From: Armatimonadota bacterium
Lineage (GTDB): Bacteria > Vulcanimicrobiota > JACPDS01 > JBDRKI01
DNA length: 44,018 nt
Assembly: GCA_043814095.1 (NCBI GenBank)
Contig: JBDRKI010000041.1
Span: 1-44,018 of the forward strand
Direction of reading: 5' to 3'
Shown: positions 2,971-41,173 of the stretch, piece after piece
How positions within the stretch are numbered: the stretch's first letter is position 1
Layout: each line of letters begins with the position of its first letter
The notes under the pieces: model-generated
Told to the model about the DNA's origin: nothing
Database searches by the model: none
Seen by the model: the letters and a program-made list of their open reading frames with translations, nothing else
Made by a program: the position numbers and the translations under genes

Positions 2971-2982
2971 AATTTTACTTAC

Positions 2983-3246: not shown

Positions 3247-3247
3247 T

Positions 3248-14353: not shown

Positions 14354-14421
14354 TTTTAACTTGAAATGTTTTTTAACTTGAGGCATCTTTTAACTTGAGA
14401 TATTTTTTAACTTATAATGGA
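14354..14421 (+). repeat. Four 17-bp tandem direct repeats with core TTTTAACTT
   Basis: Core starts at 14354, 14371, 14388 and 14405, immediately before the RBS of the next gene. Confidence 0.85.
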
Positions 14422-14428
14422 GGAAGTA

Positions 14429-16660
14429 ATGATAAAAGCAAACAAAATTAAATTTATATTGATATTTCTTGCCTTAGCATGTTTTGCTTTTTCTTTTCAG
14501 GTAAGAGCCCAGGATCAATACTCAGATATTCCCGATAACCTGAAAAAAGAGATAATGAACCAGACAGAACTCGGCATGAAGATACAGCTTATAACAAAGC
14601 TTAATGATTACGCAGGCGCTACCGAGAAAACAACCATTATGATACATGCCGCCGAAGAGGGCGACAGCAAAAGGTTCTGGGATGCTTTTACCGAGCTGGC
14701 AGCCGATACAGCCTGTTCGCTTTACCTGCCGGCAGACCTTGCTAAAAAGATGGTTGAAGTAGAGCAGGTTTTGTTTAAATACTACGCGGGAGAATTCAGC
14801 GTTGCCCAGCTCCAGAAACTCTATGATAAAACCATAGAGCTATCAAGATCAGAACCGGCTCTTAAAAATTACCTTGAGAATAAAAACGCCCGGGCAATAG
14901 CAAATGAATATGCCGATATAATAATGGATTCGTCTTCCGGGACCGCGCAGATGCTAGGAACGTCCTACGGAAAGAAAATAAATGTTGCTGAACTTATGGT
15001 AAAAATTTACCGGGCTAAAAAATACGCTAAACTTGCCGAGATGAAGCAGCAGGCAAAATTGGAAGTTGAGATGGAGAAGCTCAGGGAGAAAAGAGCATAT
15101 GTTATTAAGTATAAAGAATTAAGGGATCAGATAAATACCGCTCTTTATTCCGATGATATTGAAAACCTTAAACAGCTTCTTGAGAAACTTAATGTTTACC
15201 AGAAGGACATGATAGGGTATATATGGTGGTACAACAGCCCGGTAAGGGAAAGACTCGTTGAGAAAACAGACGAATTAAAAGCTTCTCTTGAGGCAAAAAT
15301 CAAAGAACTTGAGAATAAGAAAAACAAGGCCGACCGTGAGAAAACCAAAGATGAGGAGCAGAAGAAAAAAGAAGAAGAATTGAAAAGGAAAGAGCAAGAG
15401 GCTCTTAAGAAACAGGAAGAAGAGCTGAAAAAACAACAGGACAGGGATGGAAAAAAAGATGAGGAACTAAAACAGCAGAAAACCGAAGATGAAAAAATAT
15501 CAGCGGAACGCAAAAAAAGAGAAGAGGAAATAACAAAGAAAATATTCGGTTTAAAAGATGAGATTGAAAAAAATGCCAAGATTGTAAAAAGCACGCCTGA
15601 TCTGGGATGTCTTAAGAAACTTAGGGGCAGTATAAATGCCCTTATAAATTATGTTAAGGGATTAAATGATATTACCGATGAAGAAAAGGAAGAATTTTTT
15701 GAAGCCATAAAAGAACTTACCGATGCCGGCGCCGAACTGGACACATTAATAACGGATATGGAAAAAGAGAAAAATGACAAGGAGGATATTGAAGGCAAAA
15801 AAGAAGAAGAAAAGCCCAAGTCCGCACCTTCCCCGAAACCATGGGGGTCGGGATATCATAATAAGTTTGTGCTCACACATGCCAATAACACCCTTTTTAT
15901 AAATGTTGTTAATAATCTGGGTAAATCCATAGGCGGGTTCACGATAGGGAATGTGTCGCCGGGACAGTACCTTATGCACGAGGGAGCAATTCACGGCGGA
16001 TATAATTCAGCGTTTCTGGTTACTTTAAACGGCCCTACACTTAATTATTATGTTCTTACACCGGATAAGATTATTTTTGCCGGAAATCTTGATATGAATG
16101 TAAAGAACATAAATGATGTGCAGTTTTCAAAGACCGGTGATTTTGGTATAAGTGTTAAATGGAAAAATTCTCAGGGTCAGATCTGGGGGGCTGATATTGA
16201 TCAGTGGAAAGGCCTCACGAATAAAGTTGCATTAGGCGGCGGCGGAGCGGATGTTAAGGTTGCTAAGGGTAATCATACCCATTATTATGCTTCAACCGAC
16301 GGCAGAAACCTTACGGTAACGGTTAAGGATTTCAGGGGAAATAATTTAAACCAGTATAATTTCGGACCTGTTATGCCTGGGAATGTCAGTATAGCCGCTT
16401 GCAGTTACTACGGCGGTTATAATACGGGGTTTTTAACCTATATTAAAGACGGGTATCTTAAATGGGCTGTTTTAACCCCCGATAAAATTACGTTCTCCGG
16501 TACTTTTGATACCGATGTGACTTCTTTCGCGGTAAATAAGGTTATGTTAACTCAGATTAAACAGTACGGCGTGGATTACAGCTGGGTGAATAATAAGGGC
16601 CAGAAATACGCGGGTCATATACAGCAATTTAAGGGTTTTGTATGGAAGAAGCCCAGATAA
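14429..16660 (+). CDS. Large secreted hypothetical protein: helical N-domain, E/K coiled coil and two tandem ~135-aa C-terminal domains
   Basis: Signal peptide ending VRA-Q, charged coiled coil, internal repeat with GGYN..F and VLTPDKI.F.G. ATG 14429 follows GGAGG (track start 14417). Confidence 0.8.
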   Translation: MIKANKIKFILIFLALACFAFSFQVRAQDQYSDIPDNLKKEIMNQTELGMKIQLITKLNDYAGATEKTTIMIHAAEEGDSKRFWDAFTELAADTACSLYLPADLAKKMVEVEQVLFKYYAGEFSVAQLQKLYDKTIELSRSEPALKNYLENKNARAIANEYADIIMDSSSGTAQMLGTSYGKKINVAELMVKIYRAKKYAKLAEMKQQAKLEVEMEKLREKRAYVIKYKELRDQINTALYSDDIENLKQLLEKLNVYQKDMIGYIWWYNSPVRERLVEKTDELKASLEAKIKELENKKNKADREKTKDEEQKKKEEELKRKEQEALKKQEEELKKQQDRDGKKDEELKQQKTEDEKISAERKKREEEITKKIFGLKDEIEKNAKIVKSTPDLGCLKKLRGSINALINYVKGLNDITDEEKEEFFEAIKELTDAGAELDTLITDMEKEKNDKEDIEGKKEEEKPKSAPSPKPWGSGYHNKFVLTHANNTLFINVVNNLGKSIGGFTIGNVSPGQYLMHEGAIHGGYNSAFLVTLNGPTLNYYVLTPDKIIFAGNLDMNVKNINDVQFSKTGDFGISVKWKNSQGQIWGADIDQWKGLTNKVALGGGGADVKVAKGNHTHYYASTDGRNLTVTVKDFRGNNLNQYNFGPVMPGNVSIAACSYYGGYNTGFLTYIKDGYLKWAVLTPDKITFSGTFDTDVTSFAVNKVMLTQIKQYGVDYSWVNNKGQKYAGHIQQFKGFVWKKPR

Positions 16661-16687
16661 AATTTATATAATCAAGAAAAAGGAGTA

Positions 16688-18652
16688 TTGTTGATGAGAA
16701 AAAGATTAACTCTGCTTGTAATAATCATGCTAATATTCAGCGTGTTTTTAACTGCATATGCCTGCGCGAAGCAGTATGAGGAGAAGAATTTAAAATCACC
16801 GAAACAGTTTTCACAGGTAAAAAATATGCCTTTACCTCTTAGAAGCCTTTTTCTTATGCTTACACCTGATTTTGTAACAAGGCGCGCGCCATCTTTTTTT
16901 CAGGCAAATAATATTTCTTTTAAAATGGCAGCTTACGCTCCGGATCCGAATAACAGCGTTACTGGTGAGCGTTATCTGGGATTAAAAAACATAAATCTCA
17001 AGTTTTACCCCCTTACAAAGATGACAGTCCGTTACCGGGCGCCTCATACCAAAGGATGGGATGAAGAATATCATTATCTAAAAATATATTACAGTTTTGT
17101 TAACGGTTTGGGCGAGATATCCGTTCCGGCGGTTGAAGTTGAGATAAAATACTGGCATACGGATATAAAAGATAAGAAGAGATTTGAAGAATTCAAGGCC
17201 TGGTATCTGAGAATGGCAAAAGAAAAAGGTACGGGCAGAATGATTGATAATGTGCCTGTTTATGCGCCGGAAGGTGAATTTCCGGTCATGGTCGGCCATA
17301 AACCAGCGGGAAAAGAGGATATATGGAAAAAATACAAAGTTACAGAGAAATACAGGTTTGTTCATGGCAGGTTTACCGTAGATGTATCAGGTATGGATCC
17401 TGTAGCAATTACTTCTTACGAATACTGGGATCATCCTGCATGGTTTAAAGAAGGATGGCCTGAAATATATCAAAATATTCTTACAGATGTAAACCACAGG
17501 AGAGTTACGGAATCTCTTGTCCAGAAAATCATAGGTTATCTTGAAAATGTAACTAAAGAAACGGCAGGTTCCAAAACCATAAGAAATCTTAAGCTTAATT
17601 TCTTTGTCTCCCAGACACTTGATAATCCTCCTAAGCTTATACATAAAAAACCCGCACTCTCGGCCGTGAAAGTTACATGGGACAATGTTGATATACCGGA
17701 GGTAGAGGCCTGGATAGTATGGAGGGTTAACGAGAAGGTTGTTAAAAAGCTCCCGTTTAAATTTAAACAGCATTATTCCCCATCAGAAATAGGAAATTAT
17801 AAAGATTACGCGGTTTATGCTTTTGAGCCCGATATTTATGACGCGGTGAAACAGAAGCATGAAGTTGCGGTAGCCGTAAAAGGCGCGAAAGATAAAAACG
17901 GCAAACAGCTTGTTTTAAGCGAATCTCAGACTTATGAGGTTGCATCACTGGGCAATCCGGTAATAAGCATCATGTTTGTTCCCCTTAAATACGGAAGCTG
18001 GGGTTCCAACCAGATTTATAACGATAACGGCGAGCGGCTGCAGATCAGAGATTTTAACAGAATAAGGACAAGCTGGCTTGATTATTTAAAAGGCATATAC
18101 CCCGTGGCGCCGGAATGCGTCAAAGATGTTACCAAAAGCAACCTTCTTATAGAGGTTAATCCCGGAATTATTGAAAAATGCGCTGAAGCAGGGAAGTATG
18201 GCGGACTTCTAAACAGGCTTGAGGAAATATATGAGCTTAACAGGACACAGAACCCGAAAGAACATCTTAATTATATAGTAGGCATAGTGCCCCAGGGTTA
18301 TCTAGGGGCTACAGGGCTTACCCATGAATATTTTCCTCATTCGGTACTTATAGAAGACAGCTCTACTGCCCCTATTCTTGCTCATGAGATAGGCCATCTT
18401 CTGAACATAATAAATAAACACAATCAGGATGAGTACGGGAAAGAGCTTTTGGCGTCTCCCGGATTCTGGGTTCAGAGCTTAACTCCGATTCAGTATATAC
18501 GCTATCTCCCGGTTGAACGCGGCGTGAAAACGGTGGATTTAATGGATATTGACCCGAAAGATTTAGGGAATACCTGGATAAATAAAGTTAACTATGAAAA
18601 ATTGATGAAAGTTATACAGGAAAGGTTCGGTTCAACTATAAAGGCATATTAA
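16688..18652 (+). CDS. Secreted hypothetical protein with a C-terminal HExxH zinc-metallopeptidase-like motif
   Basis: Signal peptide; ILAHEIGHLLNIINKH near the C-terminus; AAGGAG RBS (start 16688 or 16694). Confidence 0.7.
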   Translation: MLMRKRLTLLVIIMLIFSVFLTAYACAKQYEEKNLKSPKQFSQVKNMPLPLRSLFLMLTPDFVTRRAPSFFQANNISFKMAAYAPDPNNSVTGERYLGLKNINLKFYPLTKMTVRYRAPHTKGWDEEYHYLKIYYSFVNGLGEISVPAVEVEIKYWHTDIKDKKRFEEFKAWYLRMAKEKGTGRMIDNVPVYAPEGEFPVMVGHKPAGKEDIWKKYKVTEKYRFVHGRFTVDVSGMDPVAITSYEYWDHPAWFKEGWPEIYQNILTDVNHRRVTESLVQKIIGYLENVTKETAGSKTIRNLKLNFFVSQTLDNPPKLIHKKPALSAVKVTWDNVDIPEVEAWIVWRVNEKVVKKLPFKFKQHYSPSEIGNYKDYAVYAFEPDIYDAVKQKHEVAVAVKGAKDKNGKQLVLSESQTYEVASLGNPVISIMFVPLKYGSWGSNQIYNDNGERLQIRDFNRIRTSWLDYLKGIYPVAPECVKDVTKSNLLIEVNPGIIEKCAEAGKYGGLLNRLEEIYELNRTQNPKEHLNYIVGIVPQGYLGATGLTHEYFPHSVLIEDSSTAPILAHEIGHLLNIINKHNQDEYGKELLASPGFWVQSLTPIQYIRYLPVERGVKTVDLMDIDPKDLGNTWINKVNYEKLMKVIQERFGSTIKAY

Positions 18653-24772: not shown

Positions 24773-24810
24773 AAAAAACAATAAATGATATTAACAGCTT
24801 GGAGAATTAT

Positions 24811-25536
24811 ATGAAAAATATTTTTGCGTTTATAGGGAGCCCCCTTAAGGAAAAATCAAATACATTTACACTTACGAAAATGATGCTGGACCGTATTCTT
24901 GAGATTGATAACAATGTTAATATTGACGCGTATACCGCAGGCAGTTTAAAGCTTGAGTTCTGCAGGGGATGCTGGCAGTGTATGACAAGGGGGTTCTGCC
25001 CGCAGGACGCAAATGACAATATGGGGCCTCTGAAGGAAAAAATGCTTGAAGCCGATTTTATTATCCTCGGGTCTCCGGTATATACCGTTTCCGTATCGGG
25101 GCAGACAAAGACTTTTTTTGACCGCCTCTGTTCCTGGTATCACATGATAAGGCTGGCTGGCAAGCCCGGCATGAGCGTTGTTACAACGGCGCATGACGCG
25201 GCAGGTGAAGTGCATGAATTTATGACGATGCTTATGAGCGCCCTTGGCATCTATTCCGTTGCACGGCTTTCAGCTTTTGCTTATTTTCCAGGTGTTTATG
25301 CTGACCAGCAGAAAGCCAAAGATGATGCTGTAAAAACAGCTGAAATAATTTACCCTTATATTTCAGGAGAAAAGAAAGCTGAATCCAATCAGTATATGGA
25401 AGAGGCTTTTGCCGTTATGAAGAAAAAGGTTCTTTACGGCAAGAAATATCTCGGCGCGGATTATGAATATTGGGAAAAGAACGGCATGCTGGATATTAAC
25501 TCCTATGGCGAACTTCTTGAGAAAAAAAGAAAATAA
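24811..25536 (+). CDS. Flavodoxin-family iron-sulfur flavoprotein (NADPH-dependent FMN reductase fold)
   Basis: GSP....SNT, CRGCWQC.....C (CX2CX2CX5C), ADFIILGSPVY...VSGQ.K.FFDR, LAGKPG. Confidence 0.9.
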   Translation: MKNIFAFIGSPLKEKSNTFTLTKMMLDRILEIDNNVNIDAYTAGSLKLEFCRGCWQCMTRGFCPQDANDNMGPLKEKMLEADFIILGSPVYTVSVSGQTKTFFDRLCSWYHMIRLAGKPGMSVVTTAHDAAGEVHEFMTMLMSALGIYSVARLSAFAYFPGVYADQQKAKDDAVKTAEIIYPYISGEKKAESNQYMEEAFAVMKKKVLYGKKYLGADYEYWEKNGMLDINSYGELLEKKRK

Positions 25537-25539
25537 TTT

Positions 25540-27279
25540 TTAATTGTTATGTCCGGCAGGCGAGTCAAGAGCTTTTTTTAAGGAGAAATAAAACGTTGTG
25601 CCTTCTCCGGGCTTGCTTTTAAAAGTGATTTGAGATCCGTGTCCTTCAAGGAATTTTTTTACGATAAAAAGTCCGAGCCCTGTTTTCTGGAGTTTGTCTT
25701 TTCTGGACGAGAATTTTTTAAAAAGATTTGCCTGTCCGTCTTCCGGTATTCCCGTGCCGGTATCGGCCACTTCTATATTTATAAGTTCGCCAGCATCTTT
25801 TGCCGTTATCTTTATTTCTCCTTTTTCCGGAGTGTACCGTACGGCGTTGTTTATAAGATTATTAAATATTCTTTCTACTTTCAGGCAGTCGGCGTATACT
25901 CTTGTGTTTTCCGGAGCGTAAACTTCCAAAGAAATATTTTTTTTACTTACTATAGGCGTAAAGATATGTTTTAAATTGCTAAGCGCTTCATTTAGAGAAA
26001 AATTTTCAAAATCAAATTCCATATTATCAGATTCTATTTTTGAAGCTTCAACAATATTACGTATCATGTTAATAAGAATTCTGCCGGAATATTGTATATC
26101 TTCCACAAATTCTTTTTTTTCATCTGGCATCTCGCCCAGATCCGGGTCTGACAAGAGGTCGGCATAACCCATAATAGCGGCAAGGGGCGATTGAAGATCA
26201 TGAACAAGAATGGCTAAGAATTCTTCGCGCATTTTATTCAGTGATTCTTCGGCCTCCTTCCTCTTGGTGATATCAACCATTATCCCCCTTAACCCGGTTA
26301 TGTTTTGGTGGGCATATACGCGCTGGGAATATACGGACACCAAGAAGGTATTGCCGCTGCGTTTTAATGCAGTGTATTCTTCACCCGTGAAATGTCCGTC
26401 TTCCGGCAGTTTCTGCAGGGTTTCTTTGATTTTCAACCGTTCCCCGGGGGTAAAAAGCTCGGATATGGTAAGTCCGCTTTCAATATCTTTTTGCGTGTAT
26501 TCGAAAGCTTCCAGCGCTTTGGCATTAAGAAAAGTAATTGTTCCGCGCAGATCCGCTTCAAATACCGACTGGGGCAGGGAATTTATAATATCCCGCATTC
26601 TTTTTTCTTTTTCGGCAAGCATTGATTCAAACAGGTTTTTCATTTTTATTTCACGCAGAATGACTGTTATGGAAAAAATAATTACGGCAATAGCCAAAAG
26701 ATTTCCCAGTATGATGGCGGCAAGCGCGTACTTGCCGTTTATGGCAATGCAGATGTCTCTTTTTTCAATTTCCGCGGTTTCTTCTTTTTCAAACAGGGAT
26801 ATTTCAGTGTTTATTTGTTCCGTAAGAGCTTCGCCTCTGCCCGTAGCGATTATTTTTTCCGCTTCTTCTTCTCCAAGCAGCGTTCTTGTTTTAATAACTT
26901 TATCAAGATATTCAAGTCTTTGTTCAACGGCTTCCCCAATATCATTAATTTTATTTAGGCTTGTTTTGCGATTATACAGTTTAGCGATTTCTGATAATTT
27001 TTTTATATCGAAAAACACCCTGTCTTCCATTAAGCTGTATTTTTTAAGATAGGACTCATCGCCCGTGATTACATAACCTCTTGAAATAGCCTGTAGCCGG
27101 TTTGTATCGGCAAGCAGGGTTTTAAGGTTAATTATAATTCGGACGGATTGATACCGCTGTTTCGCGGAGTCAAGGGCATTGTAGATTGACAGAAAGGAAA
27201 AGGCGCTGATCAAGATAACAAAAAAAAGAACCAGCACAAAACCTGTTAGAACCCTTAAGGAAAGAATATCTTTTTTCAT
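25540..27279 (-). CDS. Sensor histidine kinase with CHASE3-like and PAS domains
   Basis: RGYVITGDESYL (CHASE3), PAS segment, VHDLQSPL H-box, NLINNAVRY, DTG.GI, GLGLFIV, G.GTTF. Confidence 0.92.
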   Translation of the reverse strand: MKKDILSLRVLTGFVLVLFFVILISAFSFLSIYNALDSAKQRYQSVRIIINLKTLLADTNRLQAISRGYVITGDESYLKKYSLMEDRVFFDIKKLSEIAKLYNRKTSLNKINDIGEAVEQRLEYLDKVIKTRTLLGEEEAEKIIATGRGEALTEQINTEISLFEKEETAEIEKRDICIAINGKYALAAIILGNLLAIAVIIFSITVILREIKMKNLFESMLAEKEKRMRDIINSLPQSVFEADLRGTITFLNAKALEAFEYTQKDIESGLTISELFTPGERLKIKETLQKLPEDGHFTGEEYTALKRSGNTFLVSVYSQRVYAHQNITGLRGIMVDITKRKEAEESLNKMREEFLAILVHDLQSPLAAIMGYADLLSDPDLGEMPDEKKEFVEDIQYSGRILINMIRNIVEASKIESDNMEFDFENFSLNEALSNLKHIFTPIVSKKNISLEVYAPENTRVYADCLKVERIFNNLINNAVRYTPEKGEIKITAKDAGELINIEVADTGTGIPEDGQANLFKKFSSRKDKLQKTGLGLFIVKKFLEGHGSQITFKSKPGEGTTFYFSLKKALDSPAGHNN

Positions 27280-27336
27280 ATTAAAACTAATAATTCGTTT
27301 TTGAATACAAAAATCCTGTAAAAGAGGATTATAAAA

Positions 27337-27384
27337 TTTAATATGTGTTTTTTTTCACAAAATCTTCAAAAAACACATATTAAA
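27337..27384. repeat. Perfect 17-bp inverted repeat upstream of the histidine kinase
   Basis: TTTAATATGTGTTTTTT-14 nt-AAAAAACACATATTAAA. Confidence 0.75.
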
Positions 27385-27690
27385 AACACAAAAAACCGTT
27401 ATAAATAAGAAAAAATTTCAAAAAGATGTTTTTTTGTTTTTTTTAAGCATGACCATCAATTTTTAATCCTGTTCAAAACGGTATATGTAAACAGTAAAAA
27501 ATCTTTAAAAATAAAGAAAATTACAAATGTGAAGAAGTTGTGAAGAATTAATAACTTTAAAAATGGCTTAAAATAAGAAAATATGGACACATAAAAAAAA
27601 ACGCAAATAAAGAAAAATTTACGTCTTTCCACTTTGTTTATAACTGTCTTCTCACCTATATTATAGCACAAAAAGGGTATATTTTTCAAG

Positions 27691-27719
27691 TAGACTTTTT
27701 GCCTTCCCGGTGCTATTAT
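27691..27719 (+). promoter_or_regulatory. Sigma70-type promoter driving the long leader and the alanine-free gene
   Basis: TAGACT-17 bp-TATTAT with TG extension. Confidence 0.7.
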
Positions 27720-27725
27720 ACAGTC

Positions 27726-28037
27726 AGAAGGAAGAGAGTCACCTGCCGCACCTTGAAAACAGAGACATGAAAAAGAGAATGAAGGGATATTGATTTTAGG
27801 TACCGAGCGCGAGGTATCCAAAATCAGCATCTAATCGGACTCTTAAAAATCTTCACGATCCTGCCTCTTGTATTAATCTTCTAAGTGTTTGCCGGTTTTA
27901 TTCTTGCTTGTTTTATGTTAAGCAGCAGCTGCTAATTATTATGGCCATAATAATAACATAGAAAAAGAAAGGGTAAGGCCTCGAACTAATACAGCCCAAA
28001 AAACTAAGGGTTAAAATTTTGAAAGGGGGAATCTATC
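27726..28037 (+). ncRNA. Candidate structured 5' leader / cis-regulatory RNA (unclassified)
   Basis: boxA-like GCACCTTGAAAAC at 27748, long hairpin 27786..27831, nested palindromes 27911..27963; no known riboswitch recognised. Confidence 0.45.
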
Positions 28038-28943
28038 ATGATTACCAAAACAATTAACAACCAAAAAACCAGTACCGTAAAAGGCGGTACAACAAATCAG
28101 GAAACTTTAACGAAGGTTTCAGTAAGAAAAGTAGTTGGATTTATCTGCACTCCCGAGGGAGAAAAAGGGTCTACTTATGAGCTTACCAGAAGTCTGGTTG
28201 AAAGACTGGTCAGCGAAAACAGCAACATGAGCGGCGAGCTCATAACAATAACCGAACCCATACTGCAGAACCGTCCGACCCAGGATGTTATGGAGAACTT
28301 ATCTTATAATTATTCAAAGGGTAACACCAATTATAAGGGAGTAAACGGCAGCATAAACACAATTAACACTCTGATAGAAAAAATGATAAATTCAGACGTG
28401 GTAATTTTCTCAACATCCGTAGACAGCACGCATATACCCAGCCAGGTTATGTTATTCTTCAAGGGCCTCGGCGAATGGCTCTACAGATTTCCGCTGGTAG
28501 GTAAAACCGGAATTATAATAGTCACATCACCCGAATCTGATGTGCAGAACACGGTTAAATACATTTCGGATTCAATGATGACAACCGGTATTAAATGTGT
28601 AGGAACTCTTATAAGCAAAACCGATTCAAACGGCAACCTTATAAGCTCCGAAAGCATGCAGCAGGGAATCAAAAATCTTTGCAGCGAAATTTCACCTTAC
28701 ATAACCGGTGAAAGAAAAATAGAATCAGACACAGGTCTTGAAAATATTTTTCACTCTGTAAAGAGGAGAGTTGTAACAAGCTACAACCTGTCTCCCGAGT
28801 ATAAATACTGGAGAGAAAGAGGTCTGCTTACGGTAGACTCTTTCAGCCAGCTGCTTGATACACTGCGCGAAGACAGCACCTATGAAAGCACAACCACTCC
28901 CCAGTCCGGCACAATAACAACCACTTCAGTTGTTCTGGTATAA
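28038..28943 (+). CDS. Alanine-free, degenerate flavodoxin-fold paralog of 24811..25536
   Basis: Aligns along its length with the paralog (EKM..SD.VI, LVGKTG, PYI.GE.K.ES, Y.YW...G.L...S...LL). Zero Ala in 301 aa; Fe-S Cys motif absent; AAAGGGGG RBS. Confidence 0.85.
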   Translation: MITKTINNQKTSTVKGGTTNQETLTKVSVRKVVGFICTPEGEKGSTYELTRSLVERLVSENSNMSGELITITEPILQNRPTQDVMENLSYNYSKGNTNYKGVNGSINTINTLIEKMINSDVVIFSTSVDSTHIPSQVMLFFKGLGEWLYRFPLVGKTGIIIVTSPESDVQNTVKYISDSMMTTGIKCVGTLISKTDSNGNLISSESMQQGIKNLCSEISPYITGERKIESDTGLENIFHSVKRRVVTSYNLSPEYKYWRERGLLTVDSFSQLLDTLREDSTYESTTTPQSGTITTTSVVLV

Positions 28944-28959
28944 CCAGGGCATCTTGTAA

Positions 28960-28996
28960 AAATAAAGGGCGTCCTGTAAAGGGGCGTCCTTTATTT
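28960..28996 (+). terminator. Intrinsic terminator
   Basis: AAATAAAGGGCGTCCT-gtaaa-GGGGCGTCCTTTATTT. Confidence 0.7.
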
Positions 28997-29093
28997 ATAT
29001 TTATGCAAAATTTATTTATGCGGGATGCTATGCAAAGGGAAAGAGATACATTTCAAGAATTTACTTAAGTATAAAAAAAGAGGGGTAAAGTTT

Positions 29094-29501
29094 ATGAGAT
29101 TAAATGTTGTTGATACCGAAATATGCGTGGGCTGCCAGCTCTGCATGTTTGCCTGTACGCGCAGGCAGAACAGGGCTGGAATTTCAAAATCCTGTATACA
29201 TGTAAGGTCTATAGGCGGCATGGAGAGAGGTTTTAAGATTATTGTCTGCAGGAAATGTTCCAATCCGCCGTGCGCAAGGAGCTGTCCGACGGAAGCGCTT
29301 ACTCTTAAGCCCGGCGGGGGAGTTAAATTTAATTCTGAAAAATGCGAAGGATGCGGCAACTGCCGTAATGCATGCGTGATCGGGGCTGTTTCATGGGATG
29401 AAGATATGAATAAACCCCTTATATGCCTGCACTGCGGGTACTGTACAAGGTACTGTCCCCACCGCGCCATAAGGATAGACAAGGAGGATAAAAATGTATA
29501 A
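29094..29501 (+). CDS. 4Fe-4S polyferredoxin partner of the aldehyde oxidoreductase
   Basis: CVGCQLCMFAC, CRKC..PPCARSCP, CEGCGNCRNAC, CLHCGYC..YCP; ATG 29094 after GAGGGG. Confidence 0.9.
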   Translation: MRLNVVDTEICVGCQLCMFACTRRQNRAGISKSCIHVRSIGGMERGFKIIVCRKCSNPPCARSCPTEALTLKPGGGVKFNSEKCEGCGNCRNACVIGAVSWDEDMNKPLICLHCGYCTRYCPHRAIRIDKEDKNV

Positions 29502-31254
29502 TAATGATCCTCTTAAAAATGTTCTTTACATAGATCTTTCAAAGAAAACATTCGAAGTCAAAGACAGACATGACCTTTTTGATAAATATATAGGCGGGGC
29601 GGGTGTCGCGTCAAAACTTCTTCTTGAAGAATGTCCCGAAGGGGCTGATCCTCTTTCGCATGAGAACCCTATTATATTCGCGGTAGGGCCTTTAACCGGG
29701 GTTTTCCCGCTCGCGTCAAAGACAATTGCCATGTTTAAATCTCCTCATACCGGCAATCTGGGAGAAAGCCATGCCGGAGGAAGAAGCGCTATTGCAATAC
29801 GTTTTGCCGGCTACGGTGCTATAGTGATAAAAGGTAAGAGTGATATTCCATGCTATATTTCTGTTAACGGCAGTAAAGTATATTTCAGGGATGCTTCAAC
29901 TCTCTGGGGCATGGAAAGCAGTTTTACATCGGGACGGATTATAAGGGAAAGGGAAGAAAATCCGGGCATGCGCACCATTATGAGAATAGGGCGCGGTGGC
30001 GAGAACCTTATTTCTTATGCATCAGTTACAACCGAGACTTACCGTCATTTCGGGCGGCTGGGCTTAGGGGCCGTTTTCGGGAGTAAAAAACTTAAAGCTG
30101 TTGTTATCGGTGGAAATTTATCTCATGATTTTAAGGATATGGGTTCATATAAAGTATTATACGATAAAATTTATTCTGATGCGGTAGAATCCAATCTTAT
30201 GAAAAAATATCACGATCTGGGCACATCTGAAAATGTTAATGTTTTAAATACTATATCGGCTCTTCCTACGCGCAATCTTAACCAAGCCGTGTTTGATAAA
30301 GTGGAAGGGATAACAGGCGAGGGTCTTGCCGAGCATTATCTCGGCAGGAGAATAGCCTGTTCGGGTTGTCCTGTAGGGTGTATTCATATAGCGGCCCTGC
30401 GCGAACCCTCAGAGACAGAACTCTATTTCTATAAAACATCGATGATATCATACGATTACGAACTTATTTACGCGCTTGGTTCCATGCTGGGCATAAGCGA
30501 CCCGGAGGGTCTTTTAAAGCTGATAGACAGGGTTGAGAAATACGGGCTTGATATTATGAGCACCGGGGTTGTTCTTTCATGGGCAACCGAAGCATTAAAG
30601 AAAAATCTTATTACGGAAAATGAAACTTCCGGCGTTAAGCTGGAATGGGGTGATTACAAGGCCTATATGGAAGCTGTTAATTTAATTATTGAGGGAGAAA
30701 CTGATTTCTATAAAACGCTGGGAAAAGGCGTTGATTATGCATCTTCAAAGTACGGAGGAGAAGATTTTGCTATGGCCTTCGGCAAAAATGAGATGCCCGG
30801 ATACCATACCGGCCCTGCCGCATATCTGGGATTTCTTATAGGGGCTCGTCACAGCCATCTTGATAACGCGGGCTACAGTATTGACGAAAAGACCATACCT
30901 AAGGTTACGCTTACCCCCGAAGAAACCGTAGATAAGCTTATGAAAGAAGAAAAGTGGAGATGTATTCTTTCAAGCATCGCGATATGCTTTTTTGCGCGCG
31001 GCATTTATACCCCGGATAAGGCCATGGAAGCGCTTAAAATAACGGGTTTTGATATCACAGAAGATGTTATGAATAAAATCGGAGAAGAAATATATAAATT
31101 AAAGTTTGAATTTAAATTCAGGGAAGGATTTTCTCTTGATAATATACGCATACCCAAAAGAATATTTGAAACTCCGTCACCTCTTTCCGGATGGGACGAG
31201 CAGTATATGCGTAAAGCTCTCTCTTACGCTAAAAAGAAAATAACGGCGGTATAG
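29494..31254 (+). CDS. aor: Aldehyde:ferredoxin oxidoreductase family protein (tungstopterin)
   Basis: VLYIDLS, KSPHTG..GESHAGG, GRLGLGAVFGSKKLKA, ACSGCPVGC, YGLDIMSTG. Confidence 0.9.
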   Translation: MYNNDPLKNVLYIDLSKKTFEVKDRHDLFDKYIGGAGVASKLLLEECPEGADPLSHENPIIFAVGPLTGVFPLASKTIAMFKSPHTGNLGESHAGGRSAIAIRFAGYGAIVIKGKSDIPCYISVNGSKVYFRDASTLWGMESSFTSGRIIREREENPGMRTIMRIGRGGENLISYASVTTETYRHFGRLGLGAVFGSKKLKAVVIGGNLSHDFKDMGSYKVLYDKIYSDAVESNLMKKYHDLGTSENVNVLNTISALPTRNLNQAVFDKVEGITGEGLAEHYLGRRIACSGCPVGCIHIAALREPSETELYFYKTSMISYDYELIYALGSMLGISDPEGLLKLIDRVEKYGLDIMSTGVVLSWATEALKKNLITENETSGVKLEWGDYKAYMEAVNLIIEGETDFYKTLGKGVDYASSKYGGEDFAMAFGKNEMPGYHTGPAAYLGFLIGARHSHLDNAGYSIDEKTIPKVTLTPEETVDKLMKEEKWRCILSSIAICFFARGIYTPDKAMEALKITGFDITEDVMNKIGEEIYKLKFEFKFREGFSLDNIRIPKRIFETPSPLSGWDEQYMRKALSYAKKKITAV

Positions 31255-35477: not shown

Positions 35478-36908
35478 TTATTTATTAGTGATTCCCAGGT
35501 CTCTCAGTTTTTTGCCGGATTTAAGGTTGAATTCAAGTTCTTCAAGTGTAATACCTTTGGTCTCAGGCACGAACATTGCCACAAAAATGATTGCAAAGAT
35601 ACAGAATCCTCCGAACACAAAGAAAATAGAGGAGTTTCCGAATTTCTGCATGAAAGTAAGGGCGTTTGCCATAACAAGACCTGCGAATGTCCAGTTGACC
35701 ATTGTGGTTATTGTCATACCTACTTCGCGTCCCTCAAGCGGGAAGATTTCCGAACATACGAGCCATACCACAGGACCCCATGAAACAGCAAAACCGAAGA
35801 TATATACAATTACTGCTATTAGAAGAACCATTTTCGGCAAACTGGTTATTATTGAAGGGTCTGTTGTGCCGCCAATCATGTAAAACGCGATTCCCGAAGC
35901 CACCATTGTTATAAACATTGACGCGGCACCGACATATAGAAGTTTTTTACGCCCCCATTTTTCCACCAAGAATATCGCAGGGAAAGTAAATAACATATTA
36001 ACTGTGGGCACGGTCATCATGCCGATGATTCCCTTTATGCCTGCGTATCCGAAAATTGTAGGAGCGTAATAAATCATCATATTTATACCTACAAGCTGCT
36101 GGAACATCTGCAGAAGTACGCCCACTATAAGCACTTTAAAGAAATATCCTTTGAATATTATGCCTATGCCTGCTCCTTTAGGGCCGTGCAGGGCTTCTTC
36201 TATTTCTTTTATTTCAAGGTCTATTTCTTGCTGGGTGTTGAGAGTTTTCTTTAGCACTTTAAGGGTCTCGTCTTTTTTTCCTTTAAGCATTAACCATCTC
36301 GGGCTTTCGGGAATAAGGAACGTGCCGACAAACATAAATATAGCGAAAAGCGTAATGGTTAGAAACATTAAAGGGAGTGATGTTGCCGGGTTAAGAAAAA
36401 TCCGGACAATAAAGACGTTTGTTACAGATATTAAGAAAATGCCTATTGTAATCATAAGCTGGAAAAGTGTTCCCATTGAGCCGCGTATTTTTGCGGGCGC
36501 CGTTTCAGAAAGGTATAGCGGTACTATAAATGATGCTATGCCTACCGCGAAACCGAGAAAGAAGCGGCATGCGGATAATACGGCTATAGGAGGCAGAAGA
36601 GCTGAATAGGCGGAAGCTGTTACAAAAATGAACCCTGCCAGTATCAAGCTTTTTTTGCGTCCCAAGAATCTTGCAAAAATTCCCGAAAGAAGCGCTCCTA
36701 TAATACCCCCGACAGCCAGTATCGCGGAATAATTTTCGCCGGCTTTGATCCCGAACTGGTAATATTTTTCTATTGTTTCAAGAGAGTTTGCTATAAATCC
36801 CTGGTCCAAACCGAAGAGAAGTCCGCCGAGTGCTGCAACCATGCATATGAAATACACAATTGTTTTAAAGCTGCCCGGTGATGTTCCTGTGTTAATTTTT
36901 TCTTCCAT
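35478..36908 (-). CDS. Sugar porter family MFS transporter
   Basis: ALGGLLFGLD, GRKK, PLYLSE.AP..IRG, PESPRWL, FQQLVGIN...YY, WGPVVW...SEIFP, VPETKG; start ATG 36908 after GGAGG. Confidence 0.95.
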   Translation of the reverse strand: MEEKINTGTSPGSFKTIVYFICMVAALGGLLFGLDQGFIANSLETIEKYYQFGIKAGENYSAILAVGGIIGALLSGIFARFLGRKKSLILAGFIFVTASAYSALLPPIAVLSACRFFLGFAVGIASFIVPLYLSETAPAKIRGSMGTLFQLMITIGIFLISVTNVFIVRIFLNPATSLPLMFLTITLFAIFMFVGTFLIPESPRWLMLKGKKDETLKVLKKTLNTQQEIDLEIKEIEEALHGPKGAGIGIIFKGYFFKVLIVGVLLQMFQQLVGINMMIYYAPTIFGYAGIKGIIGMMTVPTVNMLFTFPAIFLVEKWGRKKLLYVGAASMFITMVASGIAFYMIGGTTDPSIITSLPKMVLLIAVIVYIFGFAVSWGPVVWLVCSEIFPLEGREVGMTITTMVNWTFAGLVMANALTFMQKFGNSSIFFVFGGFCIFAIIFVAMFVPETKGITLEELEFNLKSGKKLRDLGITNK

Positions 36909-36930
36909 GTTGCCTCCGTTAAATATATTT

Positions 36931-38289
36931 TTACGTCTTTGCTTTCTTTGAAGCGGCGATGGCCGCGATAATAGCCGCGCCTTTTCCGGAGCCGTCTTTT
37001 GCAAGGGCCAGTTTGATGCGGGAAGCCTTTTCTTTGAATAAGCTTTGGAATACCTCAATCATTATGTTGCTGAATCTCGGGTATTTTTCATAAAGGGTCC
37101 CGTCAACTCCTACCGTATGGCTATTCTTTAGTTTGGGATCAATCCAAGTTATTACCGCGGAGATAGCTCCTGCGGCAACTTTTGCGGCCCTTGTTGAAAC
37201 AAACTGGCATAGTTTTTTCATGGCCAGTTTATCATGAAGAGTAACTTCCGTTATTCCTTTAAGAGTTAGGAATTCTTCTATCGAAGAGTAATTGGCGGAT
37301 TCATCTGAAGCTATTAAAGACATATCTTCTGTCTGGAAGGAATCTTTTTTTATGAAAACTTTGCAGTCCGGATCATTGAATATTAAGCCCCTTTTTATAA
37401 GGTCGCATATTATTATGCGTGTTATCTCGCCCAGGTACATCCCGGAAACCATCTTTTCCAGATACTGACACCCCGTATTCAATGATTCATCATCAACTTC
37501 TTTATCGTAAGGGGTAAATCTTAATTTATTAAAGTTGCCCCACTCCATATTTATTACCATTGTTCCCTTAGGATCAACGCCGCGCCATTTTTTAATATTA
37601 GCAATTTTCTCGGGATAACACGCATTTGTGCCTGTCCCGAGTATAACGCCCATATCGCAGTTCGGATCATTATAGCTTTTAGCAGCTAAGGTTCCCACAG
37701 TGTCGTTTGCCAGAGCGGCAACCTGTATGCATTTAATGCCTTTGCGTTTAAGGGCTTCGTTTAAGAGTATAATAACATCTTTTCCTTCAACGCCTTTGGC
37801 GGTAAAACCCTTTGTCCATACTATAAGTTTGCCTGCGGCAATATTAGTCTGCTCCACGGGGAAAGAAAAGGTGAATGCCAGGTCGTATTTTTTAGTCTTA
37901 CTAATACCGTTTTCATCAAGAAATGCTTCAATGCATTCTGCTATAAAATCAAAAAGTTCTTCACCTTTTCCTGTCATGGCTTTTTTGGGAAGGATAAATT
38001 TGCTTACGGCTGATATATTTGAAGATCCTTTGCCGTCAAGCTCCACAGCCAGCACCCTTAAATTAGTGCCGCCCAGGTCAAGGGCAAGGAACTTTCCTTT
38101 TTCCGTGCCTTTGGGCTTATCTACAAAAGCCGGGATCATTTTTAAAGAACTTGCAAAACCTGAGAGTCCTTTCTGCATCTCAGAATGAAAACCCTGAATT
38201 ATTATTTTTATATCCCCTGTGGTAATTTTAAAGAGTTTTTCAAGATAAGCGGTAAATTCATCGTAGCCGATAGGAGCTATTGTCATCAT
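36931..38289 (-). CDS. Hexokinase, eukaryote-type family (Hexokinase_1/Hexokinase_2 domains)
   Basis: LALDLGGTNLRV, FTFSFPVEQ, WTKGF, NDTVGT, VILGTGTNACY, INMEWGNF, EKMVSGMYLGE, DGSGKGAA. Confidence 0.93.
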   Translation of the reverse strand: MMTIAPIGYDEFTAYLEKLFKITTGDIKIIIQGFHSEMQKGLSGFASSLKMIPAFVDKPKGTEKGKFLALDLGGTNLRVLAVELDGKGSSNISAVSKFILPKKAMTGKGEELFDFIAECIEAFLDENGISKTKKYDLAFTFSFPVEQTNIAAGKLIVWTKGFTAKGVEGKDVIILLNEALKRKGIKCIQVAALANDTVGTLAAKSYNDPNCDMGVILGTGTNACYPEKIANIKKWRGVDPKGTMVINMEWGNFNKLRFTPYDKEVDDESLNTGCQYLEKMVSGMYLGEITRIIICDLIKRGLIFNDPDCKVFIKKDSFQTEDMSLIASDESANYSSIEEFLTLKGITEVTLHDKLAMKKLCQFVSTRAAKVAAGAISAVITWIDPKLKNSHTVGVDGTLYEKYPRFSNIMIEVFQSLFKEKASRIKLALAKDGSGKGAAIIAAIAASKKAKT

Positions 38290-38381: not shown

Positions 38382-39557
38382 TCAATATTTGTTAAAGTAA
38401 TTAGCAATACGTTCAAGTGCTTCTTTTAAGACTGGAATGTCGGTATTTCCGAAAGAGATTCTTAGATGTCCCTCTCCAGCTTCACCGAAAGCTGATCCGT
38501 GAATGAGAGCAACTCCTGTTTTATCAAGAATATCAAGCGCTAAATCCAGGGAAGGAACATCTATTTTATATTTAGGAAAGGCGAAAAAGGCGCCTTCAAC
38601 GGGCCTTGTCTCAAAAACTTTAATTTTGGAAAGATATTCATTTGTGATGTTTTTTCTTTCTTCTATAGCTTTAAGGCGCTTGGCAAACCAGCTTTCTTTT
38701 TCTTTAAGGCAAATTAACGCGGCTTTCTGTGCTATATGGGGTGCGCATACAATCATAGCATCCTGAATTTTTATCAGTTCACCGTAAAGACTGGCAGGGG
38801 TTATTATGTAGCCAATCCTCATCCCTGCAAGGCCGGATGTTTTTGAAAGACTGCTTATTACTATGACATTTTCTTCCAGAGTTAATTTCCGTGCGGTAGA
38901 AGGCACATCGGGGGAAAATACAAATTTATCGTATGTTTCATCACTTATAAGGTAGAGATTGTTTTTCTCGATAATCTTATTCAGATCCATTAAATCTGTA
39001 AATTTTATTACAGCTCCTGTGGGGTTATTGGGTGTCACTATTACAACTGCTTTTGTTTTTGGAGTAATTTTTGATTCTATATCTTTAATATCGAGAGAGA
39101 AGCCGTAATTCCTTTCCCTCATGGGCGATATAACGGGCGTGCACCCCGATGCTTTTATTGCGAATTCATGGTCAAAATAATACGGCGAGCAGATTATGAT
39201 TTCATCGCCGGGATCTGATATTACAGCCAGTACTTCCATAAATGCCTGGTTTGCTCCCGCTGTAATTATGATTTCGTCTTCCGGAGACAGCTTTATAAAG
39301 AAATTGTCAAAATATTTAGAAGCTACTGCCTCGCGAAGCTCCATAAGCCCCGGATCGGGAGTATAGCTGTTTATAATCGTTTCACTTAATGATTCTTTTA
39401 ATTCCGGGATAAGTTTGGATGGCAGGGGAAGGTTGCATACAGCCTGTCCTAGATTTATAGCTTTCCGTCCCATATCCCGCATATCCATAACCTTTGTTGT
39501 TATAATATCTATCGGGGGAGCGGTTATGCTTTTAACTCTTTTTGAATAATCGGCCAT
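38382..39557 (-). CDS. PLP-dependent aminotransferase class I/II
   Basis: ITAGANQA, PNNPTG, ISDETY, SLSKTSGLAGMRIGY, GEGHLRISF. Start uncertain: ATG 39557 preferred over 39680. Confidence 0.9.
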   Translation of the reverse strand: MADYSKRVKSITAPPIDIITTKVMDMRDMGRKAINLGQAVCNLPLPSKLIPELKESLSETIINSYTPDPGLMELREAVASKYFDNFFIKLSPEDEIIITAGANQAFMEVLAVISDPGDEIIICSPYYFDHEFAIKASGCTPVISPMRERNYGFSLDIKDIESKITPKTKAVVIVTPNNPTGAVIKFTDLMDLNKIIEKNNLYLISDETYDKFVFSPDVPSTARKLTLEENVIVISSLSKTSGLAGMRIGYIITPASLYGELIKIQDAMIVCAPHIAQKAALICLKEKESWFAKRLKAIEERKNITNEYLSKIKVFETRPVEGAFFAFPKYKIDVPSLDLALDILDKTGVALIHGSAFGEAGEGHLRISFGNTDIPVLKEALERIANYFNKY

Positions 39558-39624
39558 ATTGTTAATATTAGAATTTTCTTTATTTTCTCCTTTTTCTATT
39601 TGTCCGGGCGGAAAGCAAAAAAGA

Positions 39625-39665
39625 GAGAAGGCTGAGACAGGGTCAATCCCCGTTTCAGCCTTCTT
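39625..39665. terminator. Long hairpin downstream of the radical SAM gene
   Basis: GAGAAGGCTGAGACAGGG-tcaat-CCCCGTTTCAGCCTTCTT; on the minus strand it is followed by CTTTTT. Confidence 0.65.
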
Positions 39666-39687
39666 ATCGGTAAGTGTCATATTTTAT

Positions 39688-41115
39688 TTAATTTTTTATT
39701 TTCTCAAGCTCCGCTCTTTTAGAAGCTATGTTCGCGGTGATAAAATCCACTTCGTCAAAAGCTTTTCCGTCTTTTTCCTTAATGGTTGCAAAGAGTTCAA
39801 GCGATTTAAGAACGGATTTGCGGAAATTATCGCATTCTTCCAGAAAATTTTCTTCAGTGATAGTTCCTCTTTTGACATGGGCATAGCATTTGGGACAGAG
39901 TTTTGCCGCCCAGCAGGAAGGACAGTGTTTTTTTGCTATCTCATAATATTTTACAACATAACTCTTTACCTTGTCTTCATTGACCGGATTTGAGTCAATA
40001 TGTCCTATGGGCGCATGTTCGGCACGTTCACAGGCATAACATGTGCCGTCGGCATCGACAAAAATACCGTTTAATCCCGGGTAACAGCAGGCGTTCATAG
40101 GCAGATACCCGTTGTTTCCCATGGGCCTTTTATTGAACTGGGCCATTATAGAAAGATAACAGCCGTTCTGAAAAGACGGATTATCTTTATAATTTTCGGA
40201 ATATTCTTTCCGCAGGTTATCAAAGTCTTTTTTAAGGGTTTCCTCGTTTTTTTCAAGTCCGTATTTTCTGCTGAAAGCGTTGCCCGGGTCGTAGTTGCGT
40301 ATAATATTAAGAGTCTTGCCCTTAAAAAGCGGATGGGTATTGAAAAATTCAACTGTTTCGGGCAGGTTAGTTGCCGGGGTTACGGTAACGTTAAATCCCA
40401 CGCTTTTTTCATAATATTCCGGATATTTTGAACTTATAGTTTCTATTACCGAGATAACATCATTATAGGTTCCTTTTCCTTTTTCGTTAACGCGCACTAT
40501 TTCCTGAACCGGTCCGTCAAAACTTATATTAATAATGAAATTATTGGTCACGACAAAATCCAGAATTTCCTTGTTTTTCAGCAAAACGGAATTGGTCGTT
40601 GCCGAAAAAAGTACTGTTTCGCCCCGCTTATTTAACCGTTCCACAACGTGTTTGATTACGGGGAAATTCATAAAAGGTTCCCCCCCGTAAAAGATAACGG
40701 ACTGGGGCTTGTTTTCCTTTTTACTTACGAAAAAAGCATCTATGATTTTATCGGCTGTTTCTACGGACATTTGTCTGTTTTCATGGGTGCGTTCTTTCCG
40801 GTAATTACCCGAATAGATACAGTATTTGCAGCGCAAGTTGCATGCGTGGGTGACCCCCAGGGTAAGTTTGGTGAATCCCATGTTCATTTTTTCCAGCTCT
40901 TTTTTGAAATCTTCCGGTGCTTCGAGCGGTAGAGGAGTGGTGTCTATTCCAGCTTCCTCGCAGGATTTTTTGATCTTTTCGTCTTTTATGCGGCTTATAT
41001 TACCGTCTGCCTCCCCAAGGCAATTGAAGACATTCTCATCTACATTGAACATTTCGTTTGTGTTTGAATCATACACATACGGGGTATTGCTGAAAGATCT
41101 TAATAAACGCAGCAT
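39688..41115 (-). CDS. Radical SAM/SPASM peptide maturase (CcpM/ranthipeptide-like)
   Basis: N-terminal RRE-like YVYD.NTN, CNLRCKYC.YSG.Y...RTH...MS, FYGGEP, SPASM C.PG...FVD.DG..Y.CE and C..CW..KLC..C; ATG 41115 after AAAGGAG. Confidence 0.85.
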   Translation of the reverse strand: MLRLLRSFSNTPYVYDSNTNEMFNVDENVFNCLGEADGNISRIKDEKIKKSCEEAGIDTTPLPLEAPEDFKKELEKMNMGFTKLTLGVTHACNLRCKYCIYSGNYRKERTHENRQMSVETADKIIDAFFVSKKENKPQSVIFYGGEPFMNFPVIKHVVERLNKRGETVLFSATTNSVLLKNKEILDFVVTNNFIINISFDGPVQEIVRVNEKGKGTYNDVISVIETISSKYPEYYEKSVGFNVTVTPATNLPETVEFFNTHPLFKGKTLNIIRNYDPGNAFSRKYGLEKNEETLKKDFDNLRKEYSENYKDNPSFQNGCYLSIMAQFNKRPMGNNGYLPMNACCYPGLNGIFVDADGTCYACERAEHAPIGHIDSNPVNEDKVKSYVVKYYEIAKKHCPSCWAAKLCPKCYAHVKRGTITEENFLEECDNFRKSVLKSLELFATIKEKDGKAFDEVDFITANIASKRAELEKIKN

Positions 41116-41173
41116 AATATTTTCTCCTTTCTTTTTGATGATTTTTAGGGGGTTCTCTTTCCCCCCCAAGTTT

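Follow-up and report, generated by a model that had tools for sequence, protein, structure and literature searches.

A 301-residue flavodoxin-fold protein of an uncultured groundwater bacterium that contains no alanine

We analysed a stretch of 44,018 nucleotides (hereafter the window; contig JBDRKI010000041.1 of assembly GCA_043814095.1) from an uncultured groundwater bacterium assigned to the Armatimonadota, in which an open reading frame (ORF) at positions 28038..28943 of the plus strand encodes a protein of 301 residues without a single alanine (Ala), all 19 other amino acids being represented. An earlier reading of the window from its letters only (the sequence-only reading) had drawn attention to this absence, which the translation confirms, and had proposed that selection keeps the protein translatable when charged tRNA-Ala is not available. 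The Ala-free ORF is a real, intact gene that represents a new, highly divergent form within a known fold family, and its lack of alanine makes it a clear outlier in its own genome. We favour, at a probability of about 0.5, an explanation in which there is no selection on alanine as such and the protein, a fast-evolving and re-purposed paralog, lies at the extreme tail of the variation in composition and surfaced through the size of the scan that brought it up. The gene and the elements that belong to it are as follows.

28038..28943, plus strand: the Ala-free ORF, 301 aa, a diverged SP1951/Isf-like member of the flavodoxin fold (translation, Pfam, AF2, Foldseek and family profile).
28022..28029, plus strand: Shine-Dalgarno-like AAAGGGGG, which ends 8 nt before the ATG (sequence reading).
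28038..28121, plus strand: N-terminal extension of 28 residues, rich in Thr, Ser, Asn and Lys and present in none of 24 aligned relatives (alignment).
28263..28346, plus strand: loop of residues 76-103 that replaces the CxxCxxCx5-7C cluster motif of the family and is predicted to be disordered (alignment, pLDDT <50, as explained below).
28872..28940, plus strand: C-terminal Ser/Thr-rich tail of 23 residues (279-301), past the family end and predicted to be disordered (alignment, pLDDT).
28960..28996, plus strand: intrinsic-terminator-like hairpin with 16 base pairs, including 6 G-C, and a T run behind it; its start lies 17 nt past the stop codon.

The absence of alanine is specific for the reading frame. 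No GCN codon occurs in frame, whereas frame +1 has 24 GCN triplets and frame +2 has 13; GC dinucleotides number 37 over the whole ORF. Furthermore, G stands at position 1 of 77 codons and C at position 2 of 68, and the two do not coincide in any of the 301 codons (Fisher p = 9e-11). The avoidance is therefore directed at the amino acid or at the in-frame GCN codon and at no DNA motif, which was also the conclusion of the sequence-only reading. A DNA-motif or mutational cause is ruled out, as out-of-frame GC dinucleotides are frequent, the GC content of the gene is not low and its synonymous codon usage is native-like (the synonymous-codon likelihood of the gene lies at the 9th percentile of the genome). 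The native-like codon usage also rules out a foreign or low-GC mobile origin of the kind found for other Ala-poor ORFs. With respect to the remaining residues, the protein is rich in Thr (13.0%) and Ser (12.0%) compared to the proteome (4.9% and 6.1%, respectively).

The sequence-only reading had credited the gene with an intact frame, a promoter, a ribosome-binding site (RBS) and a terminator. The frame, a strong Shine-Dalgarno-like AAAGGGGG and the terminator hairpin are all present; a promoter could not be confirmed, since only 9-of-12 matches to the consensus were found and the nearest of them overlaps the start codon. The gene is monocistronic. In a groundwater metatranscriptome (X1, 16 million letters), two contigs are identical to positions 28507-28596 and 28567-28787 at a depth of 8-10, and both the intergenic spacer upstream of the gene and the downstream ferredoxin gene are without cover. 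As X1 consists of assembled contigs and DNA can occur in RNA libraries, these contigs only hint at transcription and independently verify part of the sequence, and the uncovered parts are no evidence either way. The gene is probably transcribed. Two sequencing runs of DNA (X2 and X3) contained only short exact pieces (27371-27584 and 28687-28837), their remaining pieces being unlike the window, and a further run (X4) did not match the window at all. No strain variants of the gene were seen in the exact pieces from X1-X3.

Is the complete absence of alanine more than chance would produce? From the genome of the window (2.50 Mb in 129 contigs, 39.3% GC) we took 1763 non-overlapping ORFs of at least 150 aa with a codon score >0.15, in which alanine makes up 6.7% of the residues. 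The ORF at 28038..28943 is the only Ala-free one among them, and long Ala-free proteins are thus not common in this proteome. The next lowest counts are 2 Ala in 165 aa and 2 Ala in 150 aa; when only the 445 ORFs of 250-350 aa are sorted by their Ala count, the series starts with 0, 6, 7 and 7, and the second longest of the 43,199 Ala-free runs in the proteome measures 188 aa. A beta-binomial fit to the 1763 ORFs gives a probability of 1.6e-6 for 0 Ala in 301 aa and an expectation of 0.0012 Ala-free ORFs of at least 250 aa per genome. Absences at least as extreme, taken over all 20 amino acids, are expected 0.0028 times in this genome, and 0.0022 Ala-free runs of at least 301 residues per genome follow from extrapolating the run-length tail log-linearly. 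Within its genome the ORF is therefore significant at the level of ∼0.002-0.003 and represents the most extreme amino-acid absence there.

The sequence-only reading had given a binomial probability of 2e-7 to 3e-10. While the arithmetic is correct, the significance that it conveys is not, because the calculation ignores both the variation between proteins and the size of the scan. The source scan comprised ∼250,000 windows, i.e. several thousand genome equivalents if the windows are alike. As the three heterogeneity-aware tails lie between 0.0012 and 0.0028 per genome, a handful of such ORFs is to be expected in the scan; roughly, the number would be on the order of ten if other genomes are similar to this one.

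The next most extreme absences in the genome are a Tyr-free ORF of 378 aa (G000:C32:26879-28015) and an Asp-free ORF of 278 aa (G000:C36:24027-24863), the latter hydrophobic and membrane-like. The ten next most Ala-poor ORFs comprise LAGLIDADG endonucleases, an AAA_14 ATPase, a nucleotidyltransferase, a phosphoribosyltransferase, MreD, a biotinyl domain and unknowns, and no shared function was found among these ten. The two LAGLIDADG homing-endonuclease genes lie at G000:C38:16194-16691 and G000:C36:109102-109818. A literature search on natural Ala-free proteins returned no relevant report.

Pfam assigns residues 31-175 of the Ala-free protein to FMN_red (PF03358, NADPH-dependent FMN reductase; FMN, flavin mononucleotide) with 22.9 bits (E = 6.9e-5), which is below the gathering cut-off of 24, whereas its paralog in the same window (24799..25536) scores 66 bits; NCBIfam yielded no match to the Ala-free protein. 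A profile made of the protein and 24 relatives matches 1SQS (SP1951) with E = 4.6e-45 over 235 profile positions. The HMMER matches span residues 30-280 and so include the C-terminal domain with its 'Y..G.K..S' and 'YW...G' blocks. As judged from these alignments, the protein is homologous over its full length to the SP1951-like subfamily (FMN_red core plus C-terminal helical domain). The AF2 model computed on that alignment has a mean pLDDT (predicted local distance difference test) of 81.7 and a pTM (predicted template modelling score) of 0.78, with 176 residues at pLDDT of at least 90 and two segments of low confidence (pLDDT <50; residues 76-103 and 282-300). When the model was compared with known structures by Foldseek, 264 PDB matches were obtained at E <= 0.001, the best of which was 2OYS/1SQS (E = 3e-12), then azoreductases (AzoR), WrbA and NQO1/2, with MsuE also listed. 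The predicted fold is a flavodoxin-like alpha/beta fold.

The nearest structural counterpart, SP1951 of Streptococcus pneumoniae (1SQS; 2OYS with FMN), is a structural-genomics protein with a TM score of 0.76-0.77 when normalised to the target. It has the same C-terminal helical extension as the Ala-free protein and, in the alignment, it is also without the Cys cluster motif. The two proteins are only 17% identical, however, and SP1951 keeps the SPVY loop and the DR/ER motif where the Ala-free protein has STSVD and KG; moreover, the Ala-free protein adds the two Ser/Thr-rich tails, the 28-residue loop and the absence of alanine. The second point of comparison is the Isf type, represented here by the window paralog, which is homologous over the whole core and falls into the same clade of the tree described below. 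Isf stands for iron-sulfur flavoprotein, and the motif of this type, CxxCxxCx5-7C, is visible in the family alignment. In contrast to Isf-type proteins, the Ala-free protein lacks all four cysteines of this compact motif, and the respective columns hold other residues or a gap.

Further changes concern near-invariant residues of the family. GS is changed to CT, the SPVY of the SPxY loop to STSVD, DR to KG and H to Y; the first loop retains its terminal S-T. The GS...S/N-T phosphate loop and the SPxY loop are presumably the sites that contact FMN in this family. The core strands, the G-K motif and the blocks of the C-terminal domain, including F238 and W258, are kept in the alignment. The Ser/Thr-rich C-terminal tail, like the N-terminal extension, is found in 0 of the 24 aligned relatives, and the sequence offers no alternative in-frame start before the first core strand. 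Taken from the alignment, this pattern suggests a protein that still folds and has probably given up iron-sulfur chemistry, and perhaps also flavin chemistry.

No ortholog was recovered in the collections searched. Among 5.8 billion clusters, a word-indexed search found nothing but the query; a HMMER scan of 1.84 billion representatives gave 167 matches at E <= 0.001, the best of which, apart from the query, was 35% identical over partial length. Matches were present in 5 of 41 related genomes, including its own, and the best foreign ones had 27-28% identity. Metagenome contigs contained two partial loci (31-36% identity) and no ortholog, and none was found in the contigs of GTDB genomes. The Ala-free protein is thus a singleton, a lineage-restricted and fast-evolving member of the SP1951/iron-sulfur-flavoprotein branch with the FMN-reductase fold.

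A maximum-likelihood tree of 62 rows places the protein within a 12-row clade (support 97/91) that it shares with the window paralog and the Ala-richest members, and therefore its alanines were lost on its own branch. Its nearest neighbours in the tree are P0002, P0011 and P0020 rather than the window paralog; the support for this placement is only 89/77, and it is unsure because of the long branch. The end branch measures 1.87 changes per site (median 0.84) and is the third longest of the 62. Of the 16 columns in which alanine is common in the family, five are occupied by S, three by G, two each by I and P and one each by T, V, M and C in the Ala-free protein; 10 of the 16 codons concerned are a single step away from GCN. 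No alignment column exceeds 67% Ala among the 24 relatives, Ser being the usual alternative, and the alignment thus indicates that the fold has no obligatory Ala. The Ala content of 149 homologs varies between 0.8 and 16.4%, with no more than 2 Ala in 231-257 aa in several of them.

How could such a protein arise without selection on alanine? A paralog would have lost its cofactor (the [4Fe-4S] motif) and would then have changed rapidly. On the long branch, every one of the ∼13-24 alanines found in its nearest relatives was replaced, mostly by Ser, Gly, Thr, Val or Ile, with none regained, and Ser, Thr and Gly would have assumed the small-residue role that was formerly that of Ala. The result would be a non-redox or strongly re-purposed paralog, its redox function probably lost, and the case would have surfaced because millions of proteins were scanned. 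The tail estimates, the lack of an obligatory Ala in the fold, the long branch, the lost motifs, the drop in the Pfam score from 66 to 22.9 bits and the lack of sensing or stress signals (below) make this the most likely explanation.

A number of results weigh against it. The GC content of the gene (41%) is higher than that of the genome. Of the 301 codons, 145 lie one mutation from GCN, so Ala should readily reappear if there were no counter-pressure. When Ala was regressed on the other 19 residues, a content of 8.9% (∼27 residues) was predicted for this protein, and its z-score of -4.6 is the most negative of all 1763 ORFs. The column frequencies of the family give 13.7 expected Ala, and the product of (1-f) over the columns is 9e-8. 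Among 133 homologs of at least 200 aa, low Ala tracks AT-type residues (r = -0.71); the Ala-free protein's own AT-type value predicts 6.3% Ala, which rules out an AT-driven loss such as that in the low-Ala homologs, and its residual (z = -4.0) is the largest negative one among the 133. The other members of its clade carry 13-24 Ala each, and positions of the core have also been purged of Ala, e.g. IFAF>VVGF and LAGK>LVGK in the alignment to the window paralog. In addition, other long absences look typical of their class when judged by eye on the first 120 residues, e.g. ORFs without D or E whose N-terminal stretches are hydrophobic and membrane-like; no comparable explanation applies to the Ala-free ORF. 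The regression, homolog, column and one-step-codon results make the ORF rarer than the generic tail implies. The points with the greatest weight are that the loss is complete, that the ancestry is Ala-rich and that both z-scores remain strongly negative after correction for composition.

The genes and the spacer around the Ala-free ORF are:

24799..25536, plus strand: paralog of Isf type, 245 aa long, in which the C-x2-C-x2-C-x5-C motif is intact and 21 residues are Ala (FMN_red 66 bits, alignment).
25540..27279, minus strand: CHASE3-PAS-HisKA-HATPase histidine kinase, divergent to the Ala-free gene (Pfam).
27280..28037, no strand: AT-rich spacer of 758 bp common to the divergent histidine-kinase gene and the Ala-free gene (sequence, Rfam, ORF and folding analysis).
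29025..29501, plus strand: 4Fe-4S ferredoxin gene, downstream and behind the terminator (Pfam).
29494..31254, plus strand: aldehyde:ferredoxin oxidoreductase gene, downstream and behind the terminator (Pfam).

The paralog is 24% identical to residues 29-278 of the Ala-free protein (BLASTP, E = 4e-28). Its 21 alanines had been counted correctly in the sequence-only reading, and the five replacements named there (A>G, A>S, A>V and twice A>I) are all present in the alignment of the two proteins. However, the paralog is not next to the Ala-free gene, as had been stated, but 2.5 kb upstream, with the opposite-strand histidine-kinase gene and the 758-bp spacer in between, and with 8.6% Ala, only mildly above the proteome mean of 6.7%, the label Ala-rich fits it only loosely. 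A Pfam scan of 35 window ORFs showed ordinary genes for metabolism, transport and signalling. No toxin-antitoxin or defence domains were detected among these 35, and PADLOC, run on 7 window ORFs, gave no match for the Ala-free gene or its neighbours. Nor did Pfam reveal, within the window, any kinase (as a modifying partner), glycosyltransferase or protease partner linked to the gene. Synteny with the only genome of the same order (75% complete) was uninformative: its aldehyde:ferredoxin oxidoreductase is 32% identical and has other neighbours, and the Ala-free ORF is unmatched there.

The spacer (27280-28037) contains a short palindrome, AGCAGCAGCTGCT, at 27921-27933 and several promoter-like matches on both strands, together with a minus-strand ORF (27456..27830) for a Phe-rich, low-complexity product of 124 aa that has no match in PADLOC; none of the ORFs in the spacer is convincing. 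Further away in the window, a two-domain hexokinase (Hexokinase_1 + Hexokinase_2) adjoins a transporter of the Sugar_tr/MFS (major facilitator superfamily) type at 35478-38289 on the minus strand. The Hexokinase_1/Hexokinase_2 and Sugar_tr families are commoner in eukaryotes than in bacteria. The overlap of 128 bases between the two ORFs probably arises because the TTG start of the transporter has been called too far upstream. Two consecutive large ORFs of 747 and 654 aa (14417-18652, plus strand) are without a Pfam match at E <= 1e-5. A glycyl-radical enzyme (PFL-like + Gly_radical, 897 aa) occurs with its radical-SAM activase at 2035-5941 on the minus strand, and a second radical-SAM gene (39688..41169) adjoins a class I/II aminotransferase (38382..39680).

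Could the gene be part of an alanine-sensing or stress system? Rfam detected no family at gathering score anywhere in the window, and no T-box was found at E <= 1 within 27200-29100. There is no Ala-rich small ORF upstream of the gene, as the 14 small ORFs upstream of its start (of 15 listed) hold 0-2 Ala each, and the leader folds no better than shuffled sequences (z = -1.3). The run GCAGCAGCTGCT at 27922-27933 can be excluded as four Ala codons because a TAA directly precedes it in that frame and it lies in no ORF. A match to the Thr operon leader (Rfam Thr_leader) at 28888-28998 was rejected as well (23 bits versus a gathering score of 55, E = 0.17); its mirror match on the opposite strand lies over the terminator hairpin, and we read the similarity as a chance match to the Thr-codon-rich 3' end of the ORF plus the hairpin. 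The genome has one gene for alanyl-tRNA synthetase (AlaRS) and three for tRNA-Ala (anticodons TGC, GGC and CGC), with nothing unusual about them. No second Ala-free gene of at least 150 aa exists among the 1763 ORFs. An alanine-sensing role for the gene is thus not supported by these results.

These results bear directly on the explanation by translational selection, according to which in-frame GCN codons are excluded so that synthesis of the protein, which would be a stress or rescue factor, can continue during a shortage of charged tRNA-Ala, be it through alanine limitation, inhibition of AlaRS or a toxin that acts on tRNA-Ala. The avoidance is indeed frame-specific and complete (0 GCN in frame against 24 and 13 in the other frames), and neither base composition nor residue composition nor phylogenetic position explains it. 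Translational selection also predicts a count of zero, because any single codon can stall the ribosome, whereas selection on protein chemistry predicts depletion and not necessarily zero. The monocistronic organisation of the gene, its strong RBS and the hint at its transcription can also be cited in favour, and conceptual precedents exist in the form of MazF-mt9, cognate bias and the whiB7 upstream ORF (uORF). On the other hand, the gene has no Ala-rich uORF, no T-box within 27200-29100 and no structured leader, the 35 Pfam-scanned window ORFs contain no toxin or defence domain and PADLOC found nothing, and the AlaRS and tRNA-Ala set is ordinary. In addition, no other ORF of the 1763 is Ala-free and the ten next Ala-poor ones lack a functional theme, the gene is a singleton in one genome, and no obvious rescue activity can be named since the cofactor motifs of the family are lost. 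We therefore consider translational selection doubtful; that the exclusion of GCN is specifically an adaptation to synthesis without charged tRNA-Ala, under attack on tRNA-Ala or AlaRS by a toxin or competitor or under an acute drain of alanine into cell-wall synthesis, seems unlikely to us.

Alternatively, selection could act on the protein itself, with Ala disfavoured, Ser and Thr preferred as small residues and the last few Ala removed by chance; the reason might be that the protein is densely phosphorylated or glycosylated, has a strongly hydrated surface or resists a protease that cuts beside Ala. Consistent with this, Ser and Thr together amount to 24.9% of the protein, compared to 11.1% proteome-wide, both termini and the loop in place of the cluster motif are rich in Ser, Thr and Asn and predicted to be disordered, and S, G and T account for five, three and one of the 16 Ala-common columns, respectively. 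However, Ser/Thr-rich ORFs of this genome tend to have more Ala and not less (correlation +0.12), and the other 14 of the 15 ORFs richest in Ser + Thr hold 5-17% Ala. Buried core positions were replaced too, and the window contains no kinase, glycosyltransferase or protease linked to the gene. The side chain of alanine is unreactive, and we know of no chemistry that demands its total exclusion. Selection at the protein level is thus distinctly unlikely. The least probable explanation is that the gene is a decaying or non-functional copy whose odd composition has no meaning. The loss of near-invariant family residues, the sub-threshold Pfam score, the long branch and the missing orthologs would fit such a copy, but it would be hard to reconcile with an open frame of 301 codons with RBS and terminator, a fold predicted with confidence (core pLDDT >90), the retained motifs of the C-terminal domain and the exact contigs of the RNA library inside the gene. 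Moreover, neutral drift would be expected to bring Ala to ∼4-6% and not to 0.

None of the defining parts of the three precedents is present here. In Mycobacterium tuberculosis, MazF-mt9 cleaves tRNA-Lys-UUU, and synthesis shifts to proteins with few or no AAA codons (PMC6620280), since transcripts in which the affected codon is missing in frame are still translated. A total, frame-specific absence of one codon family, as in the Ala-free ORF, would be the expected signature of escape from such an attack. However, the case described there concerns one synonymous Lys codon and ours a whole amino acid, and neither a toxin domain in the window scans nor a tRNA-Ala target nor a co-depleted set of genes among the 1763 ORFs was found. 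Enzymes of amino-acid biosynthesis often contain little of the amino acid that they make (cognate bias; Fasani and Savageau 2014, PMC4209129), and the likeness is that proteins needed in starvation hold little of the respective amino acid. There, however, cognate bias consists of shifts in counts and not of complete absence, and the median bias listed for alanine pathway enzymes is positive (+13.8), so sparing of Ala is no general trend, which speaks against translational selection; besides, Pfam and NCBIfam searches do not identify the Ala-free protein as an alanine-pathway enzyme. Finally, mycobacteria sense alanine starvation by attenuation at the Ala-rich whiB7 uORF (Poulton et al. 2023 preprint, PMC10274678), which is a bacterial alanine-starvation response that works through the translation of Ala codons. 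There the leader ORF is 25-40% Ala, whereas the 758-bp region upstream of the Ala-free gene contains neither an Ala-rich ORF nor an attenuator-like fold.

What does the finding mean? If the absence of alanine is selected, codon-dependent translational escape would no longer be confined to single codons but would also apply to an abundant amino acid as a whole. In that case we would be dealing with the first 'starvation-proof' protein with respect to an entire amino acid and with a marker of an undescribed alanine-linked stress response, and the absence would provide a simple sequence signature for proteins that are indispensable to a cell in which one tRNA species has failed. If there is no such selection, as we favour, the protein serves as a calibration in two respects: scans as large as this one must be expected to contain compositional outliers at the one-in-a-million level, so simple binomial probabilities should not be taken at face value, and a soluble flavodoxin-fold protein of 301 residues can dispense entirely with alanine.

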